Shown piece after piece: positions 1 through 61,925 of a stretch of DNA of 64,000 nt; positions within the stretch are counted from its first letter, which is position 1; each line of letters begins with the position of its first letter. Both the position numbers and the translations under genes were made by a program. Below the pieces are notes generated by a model, which made no database searches, was not told where the DNA came from, and saw nothing but the letters and a program-made list of their open reading frames with translations. Source of the DNA: Rhodothermales bacterium. Its GTDB lineage: Bacteria > Bacteroidota > Rhodothermia > Rhodothermales > VXPQ01. The stretch covers positions 2,414,965 to 2,478,964 of the forward strand of contig OX638295.1 in the NCBI GenBank assembly GCA_951812345.1. Reading direction: 5' to 3'.

Positions 1-1320
1 GTCTTCCACGAAAAGGCGGCTCCATACGATCTCGCCGGGTTTGCCGACCCCCTTTACCGTCCCTCCCCCCAGCCGGAAGTACATGGGCGGCTGGCGCTCG
101 CTCGATGCGCCCGCATATCCCCCGGCGAAATGCTTCGGCGGCGCGGCGCCGGAAATCTCGAACACCCACACATACCGGTCGCCGTACGGATCGCCCCACC
201 GGATATCGTGCAGCGTCGTTTCGGGGTCGTAGCCGAGGGCATTCCATACGCGGTGCGTCACGAGCGCATCCACGCCTGCGCATTCGTCCACTTCGTTGAA
301 ATGCGGAAGGGCGCAGCCCGCAAAGAGTTCGCGGCTGCCGTCGCGGGCATAGACCGGGGGGCGTTCCGTATTGTTGAGCAATCCTTCGGCCAGATCGGAG
401 GCCGGAAGCAAATCCTTCAGGCCCTGCTGGTACTGGATGCCGATCGCGTCGCACCCGAAATCGTCCGCAATGCGGAGCGCAGCGATATACATCTTGAGTT
501 GCAAGCGAATCTGCTCGTCGGTCAGGTCCGTGGCGGGATCGGGCCCGGTATGGAACGTCATGCCCCGCTCGTCGAGCCATGCCCGGCACCGGTCCGCCTC
601 GTCGTCCGGGGTTTGCAGGGTTTCGTAGTACAGGGCGCTCTGGCTCAGGCGTTCCTTGAAGATGCCCGTGGCGTTGAGGATATGATCCGGAATGATCGCA
701 TTGTACATCCCCATGCACCCCTCGTCGAACACGCCCATAATGGCTTTGCGGTGCGCGAGATCGCTGGCGATGCGCTTCCCGGCAGACACGGCGGCCTCCT
801 CTTCGGAAAGACCGGGGGCCGGGCGCACATGGCTCGTATCGTGGGCAATCGCGCCGTCCGCAAGCCAGGCCCGCAACCGGGCCGTGAAAGCGGGATCGGC
901 CACATCTTCCCCCCAGAGCGTCGAATACGGGACCCCCGCCTTGGTCAGACTGCCGTTGAGGTTCAGCATGCCCACCAGGCCGGGCCATTGCCCGCTCCAG
1001 TTGGCGACTGTCAGGATGGGGCCTTTGTGCGTGGTCAGACCCGGCAGCACGTGGTGGGAGTATTGCCAGGCGGCGCAGGCCACGATCAGCGGTCGATCCG
1101 GGTCGATTTTCGCAAACGTCTCCAGCCCCATCCGCTGGCTGTCGAGAAAGCCGTGCCCCTTGTCCGCATCGAGTGCGGGGCGCCGGTCCACCGTATACCC
1201 CATCCCCTCCACCGCCTGGATCAGCGCGGTTTCGAGCGCCTGTTGCGCGGGCCAGCACACCCGGTTGGCGGCAAGCCGCAAGTCCCCGCTTGCGGTCAGA
1301 TACACTGTTTCGTTAGGCAT
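1..1320 (-). CDS. L-fucose isomerase-like sugar isomerase, N-terminal 440 codons (C-terminus lies beyond window start)
   Basis: Manual minus-strand translation from ATG 1320..1318 is open to position 1: [19 protein letters not shown]...[16 protein letters not shown]...[12 protein letters not shown]. Layout resembles FucI-family isomerases. Absent from ORF track because it is open-ended. Confidence 0.6.
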
Positions 1321-2752: not shown

Positions 2753-2826
2753 GGCGCGGTAGCTCAGCAGGTTAGAGCGTACGACTCATAATCGTAAGGT
2801 CGAGAGTTCGAGTCTCTCCCGCGCCA
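2753..2826 (+). tRNA. tRNA-Met (anticodon CAT); could alternatively be lysidine-type tRNA-Ile2
   Basis: Manual cloverleaf: acceptor GGCGCGG/CCGCGCC, D arm GCTC..GAGC, anticodon stem TACGA/TCGTA with loop CTCATAA, T arm GAGAG-TTCGAGT-CTCTC, discriminator A; G1-C72 pair argues against initiator. Confidence 0.9.
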
Positions 2827-55945: not shown

Positions 55946-56019
55946 TCGGCTGTCGGGCCTGGGGCTATCCGATATAAGCTTCCCAAAAGGGCCAAATTGA
56001 GCTGAAAACGGGGAATTAT

Positions 56020-56064
56020 GGGGATTTATATACCAAACAAAGTTGCCTTACGGGTCTATGTATC
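56020..56064 (+). repeat. Left inverted repeat (45 nt)
   Basis: GGGGATTTATATACCAAACAAAGTTGCCTTACGGGTCTATGTATC; identical to the reverse complement of 59321..59361 except for a 4-nt CAAA duplication. Confidence 0.9.
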
Positions 56065-56271
56065 CCCTGGAAAGGCTATATTGGACGGACCATCGCCAGC
56101 GGAGCGCCTACCTAAAGGTCGGGTCGCCTGCTGAATACAAGAGCCATCGAAAAGTGCGGAGCTGATCACTTCGCGCTGGTGAATAGGCAGGACATCCAGC
56201 AGCTCTGGCTGGCGGTGGTACATGACTCGGCGCCCTCTTTGCGCCCATATCACCAAAACTTTCCCGGAGCT

Positions 56272-56685
56272 ATGCAGCGGCTTATACCTCTCTTTCTCGT
56301 CTTCCTCTTCGCTTGCGAAGGACCTGTCGGCCCCGAAGGTCCCGCGGGGGCCGCTGGCCCGGAGGGTCCCGCTGGCCCGGAGGGGGCCGCAGCCGAGGTA
56401 ATCATAAGAACGGCTTTCGGAGTCCTCGACGAAAGGGGCAGAGCCGCTAATAGCTTCAGTAACTTCTGGATAGACGAAGGTGTTCTGCAATGCTGGCAGC
56501 GGAGCAACTCCCAGGACGTATGGTATCTCATCACTTCCGATGCCATCCTTATCGATACGGATACGGGAGAAGAGATCTTTCTTGTGACCTCCTGCGTTGC
56601 GGAGGAGACGAGTAGCGGGATGGCTGTTGCCGTAAAGGGGTTTCCAGGTTGGGAATACCTCATCGTCGCCATAAGCGGGCGATGA
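56272..56685 (+). CDS. Lipoprotein with a short collagen-like Gly-X-Y tract
   Basis: MQRLIPLFLVFLFAC lipobox, then 8 triplets GPVGPEGPAGAAGPEGPAGPEGAA, then a ~95-aa unknown domain. Confidence 0.55.
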   Translation: MQRLIPLFLVFLFACEGPVGPEGPAGAAGPEGPAGPEGAAAEVIIRTAFGVLDERGRAANSFSNFWIDEGVLQCWQRSNSQDVWYLITSDAILIDTDTGEEIFLVTSCVAEETSSGMAVAVKGFPGWEYLIVAISGR

Positions 56686-58670
56686 CGATGGCCGTGATGC
56701 GTGTGCCGGCGCCTTCGCTCTCCGGTATACGGGCGCTGCGTTTCGCTGGCTTCCTCGAGGCCGACGGACAGACACTGCAGTTCAACCCGCTCGATATGGG
56801 ATACATGGGCGGTGCGGACCTCGACATCGACAGCGCCTATGTCATGCAGGAGATGCCGGACGACTATATGCTCGCGCTTGAAAAATATCGCTACGAGTGG
56901 CACGAGAACGAGGACAGCTCAAAGGGTTTCCGCGAGGTGAAGGAAGACAAGCGCTTCATAAAAGACGAGGCCGTCGAGAATACGACTATAAGCTCTGTCT
57001 ACGACACGAACGAGCTCCTGAAGACGGGCATTAATGCGTACCGGGGCAAGACACTCCTCTCCGCCGGCATCTCATACGGCAACAGGTTCGTGCCCTGGTA
57101 CACCAACGTGGTTTCGAAGCTCGAGACGTTCGGCGACGCGACGCCGGAAAGAAAGCCGGGTCGCGAGGCGACGTGGATCAACGAGGCCGAGGGCATCTAC
57201 TGGACGGCGAAGGTGCGCAAGGATGCGATGAGCCGCAAGGACGGGCTGCCCTACCTTGTGCGTGAGCTTGTCAACTACGCTGCCGACAGCGCGGACTACG
57301 GCCGCCTGATCGACGTGCAAGCTTTTCGCCGCCTCATTATGGAGCGTTTCTTCGAGGATGTCACCGTATGGAGAGGCAAGAGAAATATTACCTCGGAAAC
57401 CGACATGTAGGGGTTCAACTATCCTTTCGGCGATCCGAAGTTCGAAGCGCTGCGCGACGTTATCAGCGCCACGAAGGACCGTGTGCCGGTTACGAAGGAG
57501 ACCGTCGTAAGAGGCCGCAGACACGTCGAGCGCGAGTACAAGAACGACATGACGCTCAAGAATACGGCCGCATGGATAATGCGAAAACTGCGGTCCGTCA
57601 GCGAACTGCGGCATCCCGGCCTCGAGCTACTTCGTTACCTCGAGGAGCTCGACGTCGCCGTACAGGAGTTCAGGGAAGTCAAGTTCGAGGGGCTGCCTTT
57701 CACGTCCGGGGAGCTCGTCGACTATCTGCCCTTCCATGTGAAGATGGGCGAGATACATAACATGGACATGCACGATCGCGAGGTAGGCACGGGTACGGCC
57801 GCTGCTGCCGGTCATCGCAATCATCCCGTCTTTACGAAAGACCCGACAAACCAGGATGACTTCAACGCTCGCGTGGCTCGCTTCAGGGTGAATACGTCGA
57901 CGTACAAGATACGCGATCGTACGGGCGATGCACGCCTGCTCGAAAGAGCGAAGATGAAGAAGATAGACTTCTGGCGACGCGAGTATGCGAACGATCCGGA
58001 GTATTTTCGCAACCTCGAGGAGGACCACCGTATAGGTCGCTGGTGACAGGACGCGGCGGACCGCGCCAGCCAGTACATTGCAGTCGTCGAGGCCATACGC
58101 GCGGAGGATGGCGCCGCCGACACCGACTATGTACGTTGGCATGAGCGTAATCTTGGCGAGGTGCCGGACCGCCCGCTCACCGTCGACGAGCGCCGGCAGG
58201 CTCTCTATGCGGAGATCAACCGGCAGGCCGAGGAGCTGCGTGTACTCGACACGATACGCGACCGTATCCTTGCGCTCGATCCGGATACGCATGACAAGGT
58301 GGAAAAGCTGCGGCGCGAGAAGGAAGCTTATGAAGAGGGTAAGCCGAAAAGCGCGAAGAGGGCCGGCCTTGTCGCCGAGAAGATAGAAGCGCTCATAGGC
58401 GACGCGAGGCCTGACAACGAGCAGATACGATTTCGAATCCGGAAGTCCGACGAGATATTCGACAGCGAGGTCAGCCGCAAGTGGCGTCTGCGCGCCGCCG
58501 AACTGAAGGAAGCGAACGCATCGTTCGGCGACTACTTGCGCGGCTTCGAGCGTTTCGAGGAAGAAACGATGCAGGCTTTTGAGGAGCCTCTCCTTGCGGA
58601 CTACCGGCAGGCCTACTATCTCGATTCGCTTTATCCGCAGTCGATCAGCCCGCAGGAGTTTACGCGAAGC
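56682..58670 (+). pseudogene. Large unknown ORF, ATGA-coupled to the lipoprotein gene, with in-frame TAG (57408) and TGA (58044), 3'-truncated at the IS remnant
   Basis: ORF-track entries 56649..57410, 57483..58046 and 58161..58796 share one frame; manual reading shows the frame is open across both gaps apart from the two stop codons. Confidence 0.6.
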
Positions 58671-59222
58671 ACGTGGGCCAGAATACGACCGGTCCTTCGA
58701 TCGCGGATACCGACGACAGGGACCTTCTTCGTACAGCCCTGTCTCTTTCTGTATTTCTTGTTGTCGTGCTTGTTCTTCTCAGTACCTCCGATATAGGTCT
58801 CGTCGACCTCCACGGGCCCGGTGAACACGATTGCATCGCTGCCGAAGAACTCGCGGATCCGATGAAGCAGGAACCAGGCGGTCTTCTGCGTCATGCCGAG
58901 CTCGCGCGCTATGCGCAGGCTCGAGACGCCCTTCGGGTTCGTCGCGACCATGTACACGGTTACGACCCATTTTCTGAGCGACACCTTGCTCGATTGCATC
59001 ACTGTGCCTTTGCGTACGGAGAAGTACGATCGGCAGCTTTGGCAGCGATACGGCATCGAGCCGTGACGGGGCGTTTCCTAATAGTGCTGCGACTTGCATG
59101 AAGGACACACCGGGGCCATCCGGCCAGCGTATATCCTCGAGCCATTGCCGGGCGGCTTCCTCGTTCGGAAACTTCTCCATTATGTCGAAGAGCGTCAGCT
59201 CTTTACTCTCGTGCTTTTGCAT
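58631..59222 (-). pseudogene. IS1595-family (ISXO2-like) transposase, frameshifted and C-terminally truncated
   Basis: MQKHESKELTLFDIMEKFPNEEAARQWLEDIRWPDG (frame 1), then YRCQSCRSYFSVRKGTVMQSSKVSLRKWVVTVYM...VEVDETYIGGTEKNKH (frame 2); the DDE C-terminal half is missing. Confidence 0.75.
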
Positions 59223-59320
59223 TTTTCCCTCCGGAACAAGTGATTTTTCCCTCTGAGCCCATAGAGGGAATTACAGAGTCCGGAGAAAAAAATAAAGATG
59301 TGCATTCGCACACTGTACAA

Positions 59321-59361
59321 GATACATAGACCCGTAAGGCAACTTTGGTATATAAATCCCC
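59321..59361 (-). repeat. Right inverted repeat (41 nt)
   Basis: GATACATAGACCCGTAAGGCAACTTTGGTATATAAATCCCC. Confidence 0.9.
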
Positions 59362-59459
59362 AAAAATCGCCAATAAATGCCCATTTTAGGCTAAAAAAAG
59401 CACAAAATGAATGAAAAATGACCAAAAATTGGGAAAAATAACCCAAAAATAACAAAAAA
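59362..59459 (+). other. Phased A-tract array (predicted strongly bent DNA)
   Basis: A4-A7 runs starting at 59362, 59393, 59404, 59414, 59424, 59434, 59445, 59454 (spacing 9-11 bp in the last seven); ends in AAAACGCCGG like the array at 55190..55279. Confidence 0.6.
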
Positions 59460-59488
59460 CGCCGGCTGTAATAACAACCGGCGTTTTT
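59458..59488. terminator. Bidirectional intrinsic-terminator-like hairpin
   Basis: AACGCCGG-12 nt loop-CCGGCGTT, A-run before and T-run after, so a U-tract follows the stem on either strand. Confidence 0.55.
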
Positions 59489-59998
59489 CCTGCCTGGATG
59501 TGGGGTAAACCCCACAAATATACATGTTCACTGGTATTCCTATCCGCGACCGGCCTCCCGCATTTCCGACGCATCGCCGAAGCGACATTCCGAAAACGGT
59601 ATTCGGGAGGCCTGACTCCCGCGTCGCCGCTCACCGACCGAAGTCCGTGCCGACGCCGACGTGGTGACGCATGCCCTGCTATCGGTTTCCCGATTGCTGG
59701 ACAGCTGAACCGCATGGGCAGACGGTTCAAGCGCCACAGACCTTCTGGTTACCCACGCTTCCTGTATCCATACACCCTCCACAGCCAACTCCCCCCGGCC
59801 TCCTTCGCCACGCTTACAGACTCCACGTCGGCATTTCTGCCGCCGCTTCACCGTGTGCTTGCGCTCCGGAAAGCCGGCTTTGTCAACCGCTTCATCAAGC
59901 CTATGCATACCCCGCACCGAAGTGAGGGGGACGGACGCACGGGCGCCTCATGCAGCCAGAGTACTCAGTCGCTTCAAGGAACGGTGCCCGAAAGCACT
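59489..59998 (-). ncRNA. Candidate ~0.5-kb structured RNA of unknown family
   Basis: Bounded by promoter 60005..60033 and terminator 59458..59488. Minus-strand hairpins capped by UUCG (plus coords 59984..59998, 59910..59930, 59632..59649, 59573..59586) and GAAA (59681..59694). Further helices at 59500..59515, 59707..59728 and 59552..59612. No protein-like ORF. Confidence 0.45.
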
Positions 59999-60004
59999 GA
60001 ATGC

Positions 60005-60033
60005 ATTATAAGCGCCCGTATCAGCCGCGTCAA
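60005..60033 (-). promoter_or_regulatory. Near-consensus sigma70-type promoter (minus strand)
   Basis: -35 TTGACG (60033..60028), 17-nt spacer, -10 TATAAT (60010..60005); A/T-rich block (GAAATAAATTTTGTT) just upstream of the -35. Confidence 0.55.
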
Positions 60034-60187
60034 GACCCTGAACAAAATTTATTTCACAAGTTGTTAACAAAGTGTACACCGTTTGAAAAAGGGGTGTGTA
60101 TAAAGCTGCCGAAAACAAGCATCTGTGGCGCCAGTGCGGTTTTCCCGTCATGTACGCCTCCACCTGTAGTCAGGGCCCAATTCTTCT

Positions 60188-60224
60188 GAAAACGAAAAGC
60201 CCGACCTGACGTGCAGGCCGGGCT
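60188..60224 (-). terminator. Intrinsic terminator (minus strand)
   Basis: Minus-strand RNA AGCCCGGCC-UGCACGUCA-GGUCGGGCU (9 bp including one G-U that would be an A-C mismatch on the plus strand), followed by UUUUCGUUUUC. Confidence 0.6.
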
Positions 60225-60386
60225 CCCGGTGCCCACTAAAACGCGACTGATACCCCGCCGGTCCCGTTAACAGGAGGAAATAACCGGACCGGATGAGGCC
60301 TCCAGCGCATGAGGTAAGGGTAAGATAACGGATTGCAATGAATAAAGCAAACAATAACGGATATTTTTTGAAATACTGGAAAGATA
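60225..60386 (-). ncRNA. Possible ~200-nt small RNA, or the 3' UTR of the rhomboid gene
   Basis: Putative promoter TTACAT-N16-TATATA (60420..60393) and terminator at 60188..60224; contains an 11/12-bp hairpin (60258..60292). Confidence 0.25.
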
Positions 60387-60416
60387 CCCCTCTATATAGT
60401 CTCAGAAATAACGGAT
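60325..60416 (+). repeat. Three direct copies of ATAACGGAT
   Basis: Copies at 60325..60333, 60354..60362 and 60408..60416 in an AT-rich stretch; the third lies in the spacer of the putative small-RNA promoter. Confidence 0.5.
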
Positions 60417-60527
60417 GTAATTCACAGTACCCAAGCCGTAAGGCACAACATGGAGTCGGGTATATTCAGGGAACGAGCCGGAGGACGACCGCAAACATGC
60501 AGCAGCACAGCGCACGTTTACGTTGCA

Positions 60528-60549
60528 TAAAGGATACTCTGATTACGTC
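60528..60549 (+). repeat. Copy of dispersed motif
   Basis: TAAAGGATACTCTGATTACGTC; shares 16 nt (ATACTCTGATTACGTC) with the copy at 19863..19882; 30 nt beyond the rhomboid stop. Confidence 0.5.
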
Positions 60550-60579
60550 CGCAAAGCTCAGAGGCTGAAAGGGGCAATA

Positions 60580-61212
60580 CTACCCCCCGATCATTCCCAA
60601 CTGCCGCAGAAATACTTCCACGGCCCGCGGCTCCAGCAAAATTGTGAGCATCAGCCCGCCTAAAGCGCCGCCGAGATGCGCCTCGTGCGCAATGCCGCCC
60701 CCTGCACTGCCATGCGAACGCCGCATCGCATACATCGAGACCACGACATACCCTACCGCAAAGAGCGCTGCGGGAATACCTATCGGTACAAAGAAAATGT
60801 GGATAGGCTGGAGCGGCGCAAACAGACAGTAGCCGAACAGCACGCCGCTGATTGCACCGGAAGCCCCTACCGCCGCATACGTGACGGAATGCCTGTGCAA
60901 CGCCAGCGAAAGTCCGTGCGCCGCCAGTTCGGACCCGAAGTACAGCACCAGAAAAGAACCCGGCCCCAGTGCATATTCCATCGGTGGGCCGAAGAAGTAC
61001 AGCGTAATCATATTGAACAGCAGATGCGCCCCGCTCACATGCACGAACCCTGCCGTGATCAGCCGAGCGTACTGCCGATGGCGCAGCACCAGATACGGTT
61101 TGAACGCCAGTCGATCTATGAACGAACGATCAAAGAATAACGCATAGCCGCTCGTCAACAGGATGACGACAAGCAGAAACAGCGTAATCGGCGAAGCGGA
61201 AAGAGCGGACAT
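60580..61212 (-). CDS. Rhomboid-family intramembrane serine protease
   Basis: Six TM helices; GASGAISGVLFG catalytic Ser motif and AHLGGALGG His motif. Confidence 0.85.
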   Translation of the reverse strand: MSALSASPITLFLLVVILLTSGYALFFDRSFIDRLAFKPYLVLRHRQYARLITAGFVHVSGAHLLFNMITLYFFGPPMEYALGPGSFLVLYFGSELAAHGLSLALHRHSVTYAAVGASGAISGVLFGYCLFAPLQPIHIFFVPIGIPAALFAVGYVVVSMYAMRRSHGSAGGGIAHEAHLGGALGGLMLTILLEPRAVEVFLRQLGMIGG

Positions 61213-61217
61213 GCGTG

Positions 61218-61925
61218 CTACGCCGGTACCGCCGCGATGTGGTCCATGATGGATTCGAACAGATACCTTCCGTCGGCGCTCCCAAGAACCCCTTCCGCAC
61301 AGCGGTCGGGATGCGGCATCATGCCCAGCACATTGCGCCCCTCGTTCACGATGCCCGCAATGTGGCGGGCCGACCCGTTCGGGTTCGCCTCCGGCGCAAG
61401 TTGCCCCGCTTCGTCACAATACCGGAACACGATCCGACCCTCGCCTTCAAGCCGGTCCAGCACTTCGTCCGAGGCGAAATAATTTCCCTCGCCATGCGAA
61501 ATCGGAATGCGAACAACCTGCCCCTGCTCCAAACGGGTCGTATACGGCGTACGGGCATTTTCGACCAGCAAGTGAACCTGCTTGCATACGAAACGAAGCG
61601 AAGCGTTTCGCATCAGAGCGCCCGGCAACAAGCCTATCTCGCAAAGCATCTGGAATCCGTTGCATATACCGAACACCAGCCCGCCGCCTGCGGCAAAGCG
61701 CACCACATCCTGCATAACTGGCGAAAATCGGGCAATGGCTCCGGAGCGCAGGTAATCTCCGTACGAAAAGCCGCCGGGCAAAATGACCACATCCACATCA
61801 CCTACACTGCTTTCCTTGTGCCAGATAAAGCGAACCTCTTGTCCAAACACATGCTTCGCGGCATGATAGGCATCATGATCGCAGTTGGACCCCGGAAAAA
61901 CGATAACGCCGAATCGAACGGCCAT
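61218..61925 (-). CDS. purQ: Phosphoribosylformylglycinamidine synthase, glutaminase subunit
   Basis: [23 protein letters not shown] (catalytic Cys), MMPHPDR. Confidence 0.9.

Follow-up and report, generated by a model that had tools for sequence, protein, structure and literature searches.

The transcription unit and its surroundings

We analysed a 64,000-nucleotide (nt) stretch of Rhodothermales bacterium DNA (GenBank assembly GCA_951812345.1, contig OX638295.1, positions 2,414,965 to 2,478,964 of the forward strand), hereafter the window, in which an earlier reading of the letters (the original prediction) had placed a structured RNA gene of about 0.5 kb on the minus strand. The interval that holds this gene runs from the end of an IS1595 transposase remnant at 59222 to the end of a rhomboid gene at 60580; it measures ~1.36 kb, more than the ~1.1 kb first given for this gap without protein-like open reading frames (ORFs). 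A sigma-70-type promoter, a predicted primary transcript and an intrinsic terminator follow one another in the interval (Table 1). The promoter matches 11 of 12 consensus positions and the terminator stem has 16 pairs, so that both signals are present as originally read, and a scan of 58500..61500 returns TTGACG-17-TATAAT as the sole promoter-like site. Conservation is ~92% over the RNA body and ~65-70% downstream of the terminator. The analysis supports the predicted gene with its own promoter and terminator, and extends it to a family of related RNAs.

The promoter is kept across divergent lineages in its geometry, with a 17-nt spacer and 23 nt from the end of the -10 element to a conserved 5' motif of the RNA. 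The -35 hexamer reads TTGACG, TTGACC or TTGACA and the -10 hexamer TATAAT, TATACT, TATTAT or TATCAT, while the sequence of the spacer varies freely among lineages. Such conservation of hexamers and spacing around a variable spacer marks a functional promoter. Some lineages, L020, L093, L104 and L021 among them (related contigs are numbered with the prefix L), have the promoter further upstream together with extra 5' hairpins. An intrinsic terminator closes every examined genomic member whose contig reaches far enough. The unit thus has a promoter of its own at a conserved position and a terminator, as an independent bacterial RNA gene should.

Table 1. Coordinates of the features described in the text. 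Positions refer to the window unless a related contig is named; w/ marks the pairing partner.
Feature	Position	Strand	Remarks
Conserved block upstream of promoter	60105..60040	minus	A/T-rich, TGTG repeats ~11 bp apart
DnaA-box-like 9-mer TTATACACA	60103..60095	minus	inside upstream block
Sigma-70-type promoter	60033..60005	minus	-35 TTGACG (60033..60028), 17-nt spacer, -10 TATAAT (60010..60005)
Primary transcript, ~545 nt	59998..59454	minus	predicted start A at 59998, 7 nt past -10, to end of T-run
Structured core, ~464 nt	59998..59535	minus	inferred mature RNA; 5' end to helices pairing 5' and 3' ends
P1, 5' hairpin GUGCU-UUCG-GGCAC	59997..59984	minus	sequence varies, pairing kept
Universal 5' motif GUUCCUUGAAGCGACUGAGUACUCUGGCUGCAUGAGG	59982..59946	minus	5' strands of long-range helices P2, P3, P4
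P2 UUCCU/AGGAA	59981..59977 w/ 59541..59537	minus	97.6% of cells paired
P3 GCGAC/GUCGC	59972..59968 w/ 59550..59546	minus	97.8% of cells paired
P4 ACUCU/GGAGU	59962..59958 (5' strand)	minus	98.4% of cells paired; A-U to U-A in 5 sequences
UUCG hairpin CCCCCUCAC-UUCG-GUGCGGGG	59930..59910	minus	
Kink-turn 1	59887..59902 (bulged strand); 59773..59784 (partner)	minus	C-stem, bulge GAU, GAA, NC-stem GCGG; partner CUGU-GGA-GGGUG
Kink-turn 2	59843..59858 (bulged strand); ~59816..59829 (partner)	minus	GCACAC, bulge GGU, GAA, GCGG; partner GACGU-GGA-GUCUGU
Kink-turn 3	59800..59815 (bulged strand, 3' side); 59860..59871 (partner)	minus	bulge GCG, GAA, GGAG; partner UUCC-GGA-GCGCA
Universal hairpin GAACCG-UCUGCCCAUG-CGGUUC	59728..59707	minus	near-invariant loop UGCCCAUGCG at 59720..59711
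GAAA-capped hairpin AUCGG-GAAA-CCGAU	59694..59681	minus	
UUCG hairpin CACGGAC-UUCG-GUCGGUG	59649..59632	minus	
3' module	59612..59552	minus	helix GGCCUCCCG/CGGGAGGCC around nested stem and UUCG hairpin 59586..59573
9-bp helix GGCCUCCCG/CGGGAGGCC	59612..59604 w/ 59560..59552	minus	
UUCG hairpin GUCGC-UUCG-GCGAU	59586..59573	minus	
Closing-helix 3' strands P3 and P2	59550..59537	minus	tandem-GA internal loop UGAA/GGAU between
3' tail	59534..59454	minus	hairpin GUGGGG-UUUA-CCCCAC and intrinsic terminator; in genomic loci
Hairpin GUGGGG-UUUA-CCCCAC	59515..59500	minus	
Intrinsic terminator	59489..59454	minus	16 pairs, then T-run
ORF, 125 aa	59540..59917	minus	spurious
ORF, 189 aa	59498..60067	plus	spurious; called as gene in public assemblies
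Insertion downstream of RNA, 3.4 kb	~55969..59361		specific to strain lineage
Frameshifted IS1595 transposase	58631..59222		inside 3.4-kb insertion
Family-2 glycosyltransferase (GT2) gene, 216-220 aa	L010 11787..12437; L015 12101..12751; L017 3578..4225; L019 11928..12590; L088 3546..4196		

Homologs, synteny and size range

Related contigs were fetched by way of the rhomboid protein next to the RNA and of the three proteins that match the spurious plus-strand ORF; the genome-collection set was gathered by synteny and leaves out cultured Rhodothermus and Salinibacter as well as non-syntenic copies. Of 18 Rhodothermales-type reference loci searched with an nhmmer profile (L008-L025), 14 carry the RNA downstream of the rhomboid gene (L008-L017, L019, L020, L021 and L024). 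At the syntenic site of L018, L022, L023 and L025 the RNA is missing, as it is from every non-Rhodothermales locus. A degenerate pattern built from the 5' segment retrieves 29 further metagenome contigs and no copy in 2.9 million viral contigs. The bearers are uncultured Rhodothermales, and the family is restricted to a subset of this order.

Gene order is the same in all genomic members: purQ, the rhomboid gene and the RNA point in one direction and are met by a convergent series of p375, an aminotransferase gene, a DUF5683 gene and the ParB gene. This synteny is fixed down to 56% rhomboid identity, and is likewise found in every metagenome contig long enough to include flanks. The RNA, which is single-copy in the window, also tracks the host phylogeny, and we thus regard it as a vertically inherited core gene. 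The rhomboid gene itself lies inside a long conserved syntenic block, so that its adjacency to the RNA is little informative. Sizes range from 462 to more than 1140 nt, and the window carries the smallest form, with a 464-nt core. The peripheral domains expand across lineages and are rich in UUCG and GNRA hairpins and in kink-turn signatures of the Kt-7 type.

Fold, covariation and the universal core

The 541-nt transcript of the window folds with a minimum free energy of -244.7 kcal/mol, compared with -218.5 +/- 6.6 in dinucleotide shuffles (z = -3.96), and none of 100 shuffles folds as well. The hairpins, the GAACCG/CGGUUC helix and the 9-bp helix of the original prediction are all found where it had drawn them. 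Its claim of a CUUCGG excess also stands: the hexamer occurs three times in the window RNA against 0.17 in dinucleotide shuffles (P ~0.0015), where it had estimated ~0.1. Related loci provide a further line of evidence, and the covariation that the original prediction proposed to look for is extensive in the predicted helices. For an alignment of 12 sequences drawn from two diverged groups RNAalifold gives 160 predicted pairs; 25 of them stay paired although both sides have changed, and few are broken.

Transferred to an alignment of 28 non-redundant cores, whose lengths span 462-1142 nt, this structure retains 141 pairs. In the 28 members 76.5% of cells are paired, and sliding the 3' partners by 1-3 columns lowers this to 39-43%. 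The slid controls reach a covariation score of ~0.085, the real alignment 0.224, and double changes affect 87 pairs against 61-69. None of 500 shuffles reaches any of the observed pairing or covariation measures. Compensatory substitutions are therefore present beyond the controls, as expected of a conserved secondary structure. The centre of the alignment is unalignable owing to lineage-specific insertions, and the pairing figures thus understate the true pairing.

The RNA has a closed, multi-domain architecture, in which P2, P3 and P4 join the conserved 5' strand to the 3' end as long-range helices. The 5' motif that supplies these strands shows little or no variation in any member, and this holds also for those obtained by synteny and not picked by the motif. 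In the window a tandem-GA internal loop separates the 3' strands of P3 and P2; other lineages replace it with a continuous Watson-Crick helix, CCUUGACGCGAC/GUCGCGUCAAGG. The 5'-terminal hairpin P1 reads GUGCC/GGCAC in some members and GCGUC/GAUGC in others, with changes on both sides at four of its five pairs.

Three elements make up the universal core: the 5' strand, the hairpin whose loop UGCCCAUGCG is invariant and, near the 3' end, the GGCCUCCC/GGGAGGCC module. The loop is invariant or nearly so in 28 of 28 members, and its stem is paired in 89% of cells, with compensatory changes at three of six pairs. The outer helix of the 3' module (GGCCUCCC/GGGAGGCC) is paired in 94.4% of cells family-wide and shows a GC to AU double change in L091; its inner helices carry many compensatory changes. 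Positions 59719..59713 of the loop (G280-G286) are complementary to CAUG(A)GGC at 59952..59945 (C47-C54) over 7 bp with one bulged A, which suggests a pseudoknot at the core of the fold.

Recurrent kink-turn signatures

A 6-mer scan of 15 representatives identifies three hexamers in excess beyond the k-mers of the core, namely CUUCGG (29 against 3.8 expected), UGAAGC (29 against 4.8) and GUGGAG (28 against 6.0). On the consensus structure, UGAAGC and GUGGAG are the two strands of a Kt-7-type kink-turn. The module comprises a C-stem, a 3-nt bulge, tandem G.A/A.G pairs, A.G at 3b.3n and an NC-stem. A strict Kt-7 pattern gives 67 matches in the 28 RNAs compared with 9.8 +/- 3.2 (maximum 18) in shuffles and 7 on the reverse complement, and chunks of 464 nt from the genomic DNA of the window hold 0.1 match on average (maximum 1). 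An earlier finder with 3-bp stems was dropped, as it returned 273 matches over a background of 191 and missed sites with one stem mismatch. Together with the conserved promoter and terminator geometry, this strand-specific signature (67 against 7) confirms the minus strand, to which the original prediction had assigned the gene.

Three Kt-7-type sites occur in the window RNA. Kink-turn 1 is found in 10 of 10 small-form members (462-501 nt: the clade of the window and the L013/L014/L016 group), and its flanking stems covary, with CG to UA and UG to CG changes. Kink-turn 2, placed by the consensus structure and the motif scan, encloses a GAAA-capped hairpin and has one C.C mismatch in its C-stem in the window. 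The pattern of kink-turn 3 is found in the window, L005, L006, L007 and L011.

The two strands of the H. marismortui Kt-7 read NNN-GAA and GGA. The recurring modules share with it the Watson-Crick C-stem, the 3-nt bulge, the tandem G.A/A.G pairs, the A.G at 3b.3n and the NC-stem, and thus agree with Kt-7 in sequence and secondary structure as judged by pattern matches. They differ from it in being known from sequence pattern and secondary-structure context, with some lineages lacking a strict match.

Transcript-like contigs and probable 3' maturation

In nine contigs of 1.09-1.17 kb the 5' motif is preceded by 1-24 nt (by 63 nt in L102, which is chimeric). Seven of the nine (L089, L096-L098, L112, L113 and L116) end within 0-6 nt of the closing helix and contain neither promoter nor terminator. 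A tenth contig, L108, likewise stops at the closing helix but starts with unrelated AT-rich sequence. As these contigs start at the predicted 5' end and stop at the closing helix, we infer an abundant, 3'-trimmed RNA with paired termini. The 3' tail with its terminator is probably removed in maturation; the primary transcript would be trimmed back to the closing helix, yielding an abundant and stable RNA whose termini are paired.

In L102 a fragment of a eukaryotic (metazoan-type) SRP/7SL RNA (969..1097, 60.4 bits) is fused to the 5' part of the RNA. Fusions of this kind are typical of metatranscriptome assemblies, and L102 probably arose when two abundant RNAs were joined in the assembly of a metatranscriptome.

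Coding potential and known RNA families

Two ORFs overlap the RNA, and we consider both spurious. Neither the 125-aa ORF on the minus strand nor the 189-aa ORF on the plus strand matches a Pfam family. In every close relative the 125-aa ORF is broken by frameshifting indels of 1-2 nt and by premature stops (codons 23-91), and its variable sites fall on the three codon positions as 32/25/27, without an excess at the third. The check on this ORF set out in the original prediction therefore comes out on the side of a non-coding gene. The 189-aa ORF spans both the promoter and the terminator, and finds three matches among 5.8 billion proteins, with inconsistent lengths and coverage.

At gathering score, a comparison of the whole window with Rfam 15 by cmscan returns only a tRNA (2753..2826, 74.9 bits), which bears out the view of the original prediction that the RNA is outside the classical families. 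A permissive scan of 59200..60600 (E up to 10) gives only sub-threshold matches centred on the terminator and 3' tail, the best being Thr_leader at 28 bits against a threshold of 55. Similarly, 16 contigs of other lineages (nine of the long form at E up to 1, seven loci at E up to 0.1) show no Rfam match on the RNA. The models thus left without a match include RNaseP_bact_a/b, tmRNA, 6S, SRP, OLE, GOLLD, ROOL, HEARO, raiA and the group I and II introns. We found no description of such an RNA in the literature, including the full text of large genome-by-genome discovery surveys.

DnaA-box-like sites upstream of the promoter

The A/T-rich block upstream of the promoter is kept in close relatives, and the homology of L002 begins there. 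With a DnaA-box consensus that is assumed for this clade, 9-mers with at most one mismatch to TTATCCACA occur within 173 nt upstream in 17 of 22 lineages, compared with 0.69 in shuffles (maximum 4). They are often perfect copies of TTATCCACA, and their position and orientation differ between lineages. As a control, the next 410 nt upstream contain a DnaA-box-like 9-mer in 1 of 22 lineages. By sequence match, then, DnaA boxes are present at the promoter, and we read them as a putative operator or titration site.

DnaA-regulated promoters include those of dnaA, nrdAB and mioC in E. coli and of sda in B. subtilis. The RNA promoter resembles these in having one or two 9-mers that match TTATCCACA ~30-110 bp upstream of, or beside, the -35 element, and differs in that the target is a non-coding RNA gene, the boxes being putative and the clade consensus assumed. 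If functional, the boxes would tie synthesis of the RNA to replication or growth state; we regard such coupling to DnaA status as evenly poised between likely and unlikely.

The locus itself was considered as a replication origin (oriC) and rejected as such. It has only one or two boxes, and the sign of the GC skew does not change across the RNA in the 10 loci whose flanks are full-length (in the window, L088 and two others the flanks are short or contain islands, which makes the skew uninformative). With neither a skew switch nor a box cluster the locus is not oriC, and gene orientation shows no divergence there.

We further note a DnaA-box-like TGTGGATAC inside the transcribed region, at RNA ~228-240, in small forms such as L005, L012, L013 and L016. 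The window reads TATGGATAC at ~59760..59771, two mismatches from the DnaA-box consensus. This internal site may be coincidental.

Insertions and neighbouring genes

Strain comparison delimits a constant unit from ~60105 to ~59362, and both flanks of this unit behave as insertion hotspots. On the downstream side lies the 3.4-kb insertion with the IS1595 transposase; several plus-strand ORFs of this insertion (e.g. 57483..58046 and 58161..58796) have no Pfam or PADLOC match. In L004 and L005 the RNA lies directly between a 175-aa gene and the rhomboid gene. On the upstream side, between the rhomboid gene and the RNA promoter, L002 (1653..3427), L009 (3248..5064) and L013 (3040..4880) carry a pair of genes for an ATPase (AAA_15/AAA_21) and a DUF4276 protein. 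Remnants of the pair are found in L014 (10720..11481) and L016 (1992..2930), and it is decayed or absent in other lineages. PADLOC assigns the pair to HEC-01 (E = 4.7e-161), which is related to AriA/AriB of PARIS. A link of the RNA to mobile elements was therefore rejected, as both the IS1595 element and the HEC-01/PARIS-like genes are insertions that flank the constant unit. The original prediction had drawn attention to the decayed mobile element as a setting for the RNA; the IS1595 remnant is incidental, part of a strain-lineage insertion beside a core gene of fixed synteny.

Downstream of the RNA, a subset of lineages has a GT2 gene that starts 40-80 nt past the terminator on the same strand. 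A riboswitch or cis-leader was rejected as an identity for the RNA, since a consistent, co-oriented and related gene downstream is missing. A 175-aa OB-fold-like gene and a DUF1801 gene were considered as partners and set aside, being confined to the clade of the window.

The p375 gene (L004 5464..6591, with homologs in all genomic loci) converges on the RNA. Its product has no match in Pfam, NCBIfam or PDB and contains an HGRGLD motif, by which it looks like a GNAT-type acyl-CoA N-acyltransferase.

Right after the terminator, the window has phased T-tracts every 10-11 bp (59362..59453: GTTATTTTTGG GTTATTTTTCC CAATTTTTGG TCATTTTTCA ...). The pattern is kept in close relatives and the exact sequence is not; such tracts may form intrinsically curved DNA. 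On the other side, the ~390 nt that follow the rhomboid stop codon (60190..60579) contain no convincing ORF and no Rfam match, and end in a terminator-like hairpin at ~60225..60190. This stretch could be a long 3' untranslated region or another small element.

Alternative explanations

A protein-coding explanation, by either the minus-strand 125-aa or the plus-strand 189-aa ORF, has next to no probability: both frames are open in the window and the plus-strand one is called as a gene publicly, but the missing Pfam families, the three inconsistent homologs, the frameshifts, the absence of codon periodicity and the course of the plus-strand ORF across promoter and terminator all speak against it. 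Another possibility is that IS1595, or the ATPase and DUF4276 pair, uses the RNA as, for example, a guide, antitoxin or regulator, which would make it part of a mobile element or defence island. The IS1595 remnant 230 nt downstream in the window would fit, as would the HEC-01-type pairs of three lineages and their remnants in two more. However, the RNA occurs without either element in L004, L005, L008, L011 and many others, the insertions flank the promoter-to-terminator unit on one side or the other without entering it, and the RNA follows host phylogeny and synteny and is missing from the viral contigs searched, which makes such an origin very improbable. Scarcely more probable is a giant cis-acting leader or attenuator controlling a downstream gene such as GT2. 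A co-oriented GT2 gene does lie directly downstream in L010, L015, L017, L019/L103 and L088, and the terminator at the end of the unit could serve as an attenuator. Yet most lineages with enough sequence have no GT2 gene downstream, among them the window, L002, L004-L009, L011-L014, L016, L020, L024, L100, L104, L106 and L111, it is inverted in L095, and the next gene is convergent in the clade of the window and in most lineages. The terminator moreover is strong and appears constitutive, and the transcript-like contigs stop before it, with no mRNA in them.

Two further explanations seem unlikely to a high degree. One is a highly divergent housekeeping RNA (RNase P RNA, tmRNA, 6S or SRP) missed by the covariance models, for which the paired termini, strong promoter, single copy, vertical inheritance and variable periphery around a conserved core can be cited. 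Against it, no lineage gives even a weak Rfam match to the RNA body at permissive thresholds, the RNA is absent at the syntenic site of a related complete genome and at other Rhodothermales loci, and at 460-1140 nt and multi-branched it is unlike 6S or SRP RNA. Cultured Rhodothermales, in addition, have ordinary RNase P RNA and tmRNA. The other holds the locus to be primarily a DnaA-binding site, as oriC or a titration or reactivation site, with the transcript a by-product or an activator of the origin. The upstream boxes in most lineages, the phased T-tracts after the terminator and parAB at a distance of 5-8 kb are consistent with this, but the small number of unclustered boxes, the constant sign of the skew and the lack of divergence in gene orientation are not, and 460-1140 nt of covarying structure with an invariant core would be left unexplained.

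Several observations weigh against our own reading of the locus as a core gene for a large, kink-turn-bearing RNA. The metagenome members L088-L116 were selected by the 5' motif, which in part accounts for its invariance among them. The short contigs from JGI (Joint Genome Institute) come from relatives, and their metatranscriptomic nature is deduced from boundaries and chimeras. No strict kink-turn match is found in 5 of 28 members (L090, L091 and L106-L108), and the kink-turns, the pseudoknot and control by DnaA rest on sequence patterns. The conserved neighbours, a rhomboid protease and a GNAT-like protein, have no obvious link to RNA, and the search among the neighbours gave no partner protein. 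Finally, the complete chromosome of a related species (L018, OZ220686.1) is without the RNA at the syntenic site, where a 1138-aa, leucine-rich-repeat-like ORF (L018 10670..14086) fills the space between the rhomboid gene and p375; a diverged copy of the RNA sought at this site was not found. This looks like natural loss or relocation, and the RNA may thus be dispensable or have moved.

Identity and proposed role

The gene, its signals, the fold, the conservation and the non-coding nature of the transcript are shown by the analysis, and we are nearly certain that this is a real gene for a structured non-coding RNA. That the family is undescribed is very likely. The statement as a whole, namely that an independent gene encodes a large, structured and non-coding RNA of an undescribed family with the role proposed here, we consider probable. 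The RNA would act in trans, since the downstream genes differ, are mostly convergent and include GT2 in a subset only.

The enrichment of kink-turns suggests either recognition by protein or a compact architecture that folds by itself. In OLE RNA, a kink-turn is needed for recognition by OapC, and the RNA works as a ribonucleoprotein (PMC9723947). By analogy, the RNA could be a ribonucleoprotein scaffold whose proteins recognise the kink-turns and the invariant single-stranded core, a role that we propose tentatively. An RNA-only assembly or a ribozyme is less likely. ROOL, GOLLD and OLE form RNA-only homo-oligomers (PMC12286853), which makes an RNA-only oligomer a possible mode of action here by analogy. 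It seems rather doubtful that the family is a new class altogether, that is, an abundant core-genome RNA studded with kink-turns around a pseudoknotted core, wired to DnaA and endowed with a new biochemical function as ribozyme, ribonucleoprotein or RNA-only machine; its role may prove analogous to something known.

Known RNAs provide partial parallels. OLE (ornate, large, extremophilic) RNA and the RNA described here are both chromosomal, clade-restricted, ~0.5-0.6 kb long (in the small form here) and highly structured, with blocks of invariant nucleotides. However, OLE belongs to another phylum, the Bacillota, and is not homologous in sequence or structure: its covariance model does not match. 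OLE lies inside an operon beside partner genes and has one characterised functional kink-turn, whereas the Rhodothermales RNA has its own promoter and terminator and several reiterated kink-turn signatures, and varies 2.5-fold in size. ROOL and GOLLD are, like it, large (~0.6-0.8 kb), ornate bacterial RNAs with many hairpins. They are typically found in prophage or mobile contexts, in contrast to a syntenic core gene that has no viral-contig copy and that their Rfam models do not recognise. Like it, RNase P RNA, tmRNA and 6S RNA have an independent strong promoter, exist as a single copy and have their 5' and 3' ends paired in a terminal helix. They too possess a conserved core to which lineages add peripheral expansions of their own, and a further parallel is the apparent trimming, at the 3' end, of a precursor that contains the terminator. 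Their defining motifs, as captured by covariance models, are absent here, and the RNA is limited to part of one order.

Apart from rRNA, self-splicing introns, RNase P RNA and tmRNA, few bacterial RNAs are known that are both longer than 400 nt and highly structured; OLE, GOLLD, ROOL, HEARO and raiA are among them. The earlier large RNAs each opened a line of work, be it ribonucleoprotein biology, RNA-only cages or RNA-guided nucleases. The present family is tractable, with a clear promoter and ends, apparent abundance in environmental transcriptomes and kink-turns that point to specific tests, and the 460-nt minimal form beside forms of 1.1 kb provides a natural deletion series that defines the core. 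We know of no precedent for DnaA boxes at the promoter of such a non-coding RNA gene; if functional, they would connect such an RNA with the replication initiator. More broadly, in order-level clades that are represented largely by metagenome-assembled genomes, there are still hidden core-genome RNAs, which gene callers mis-annotate as hypothetical proteins.

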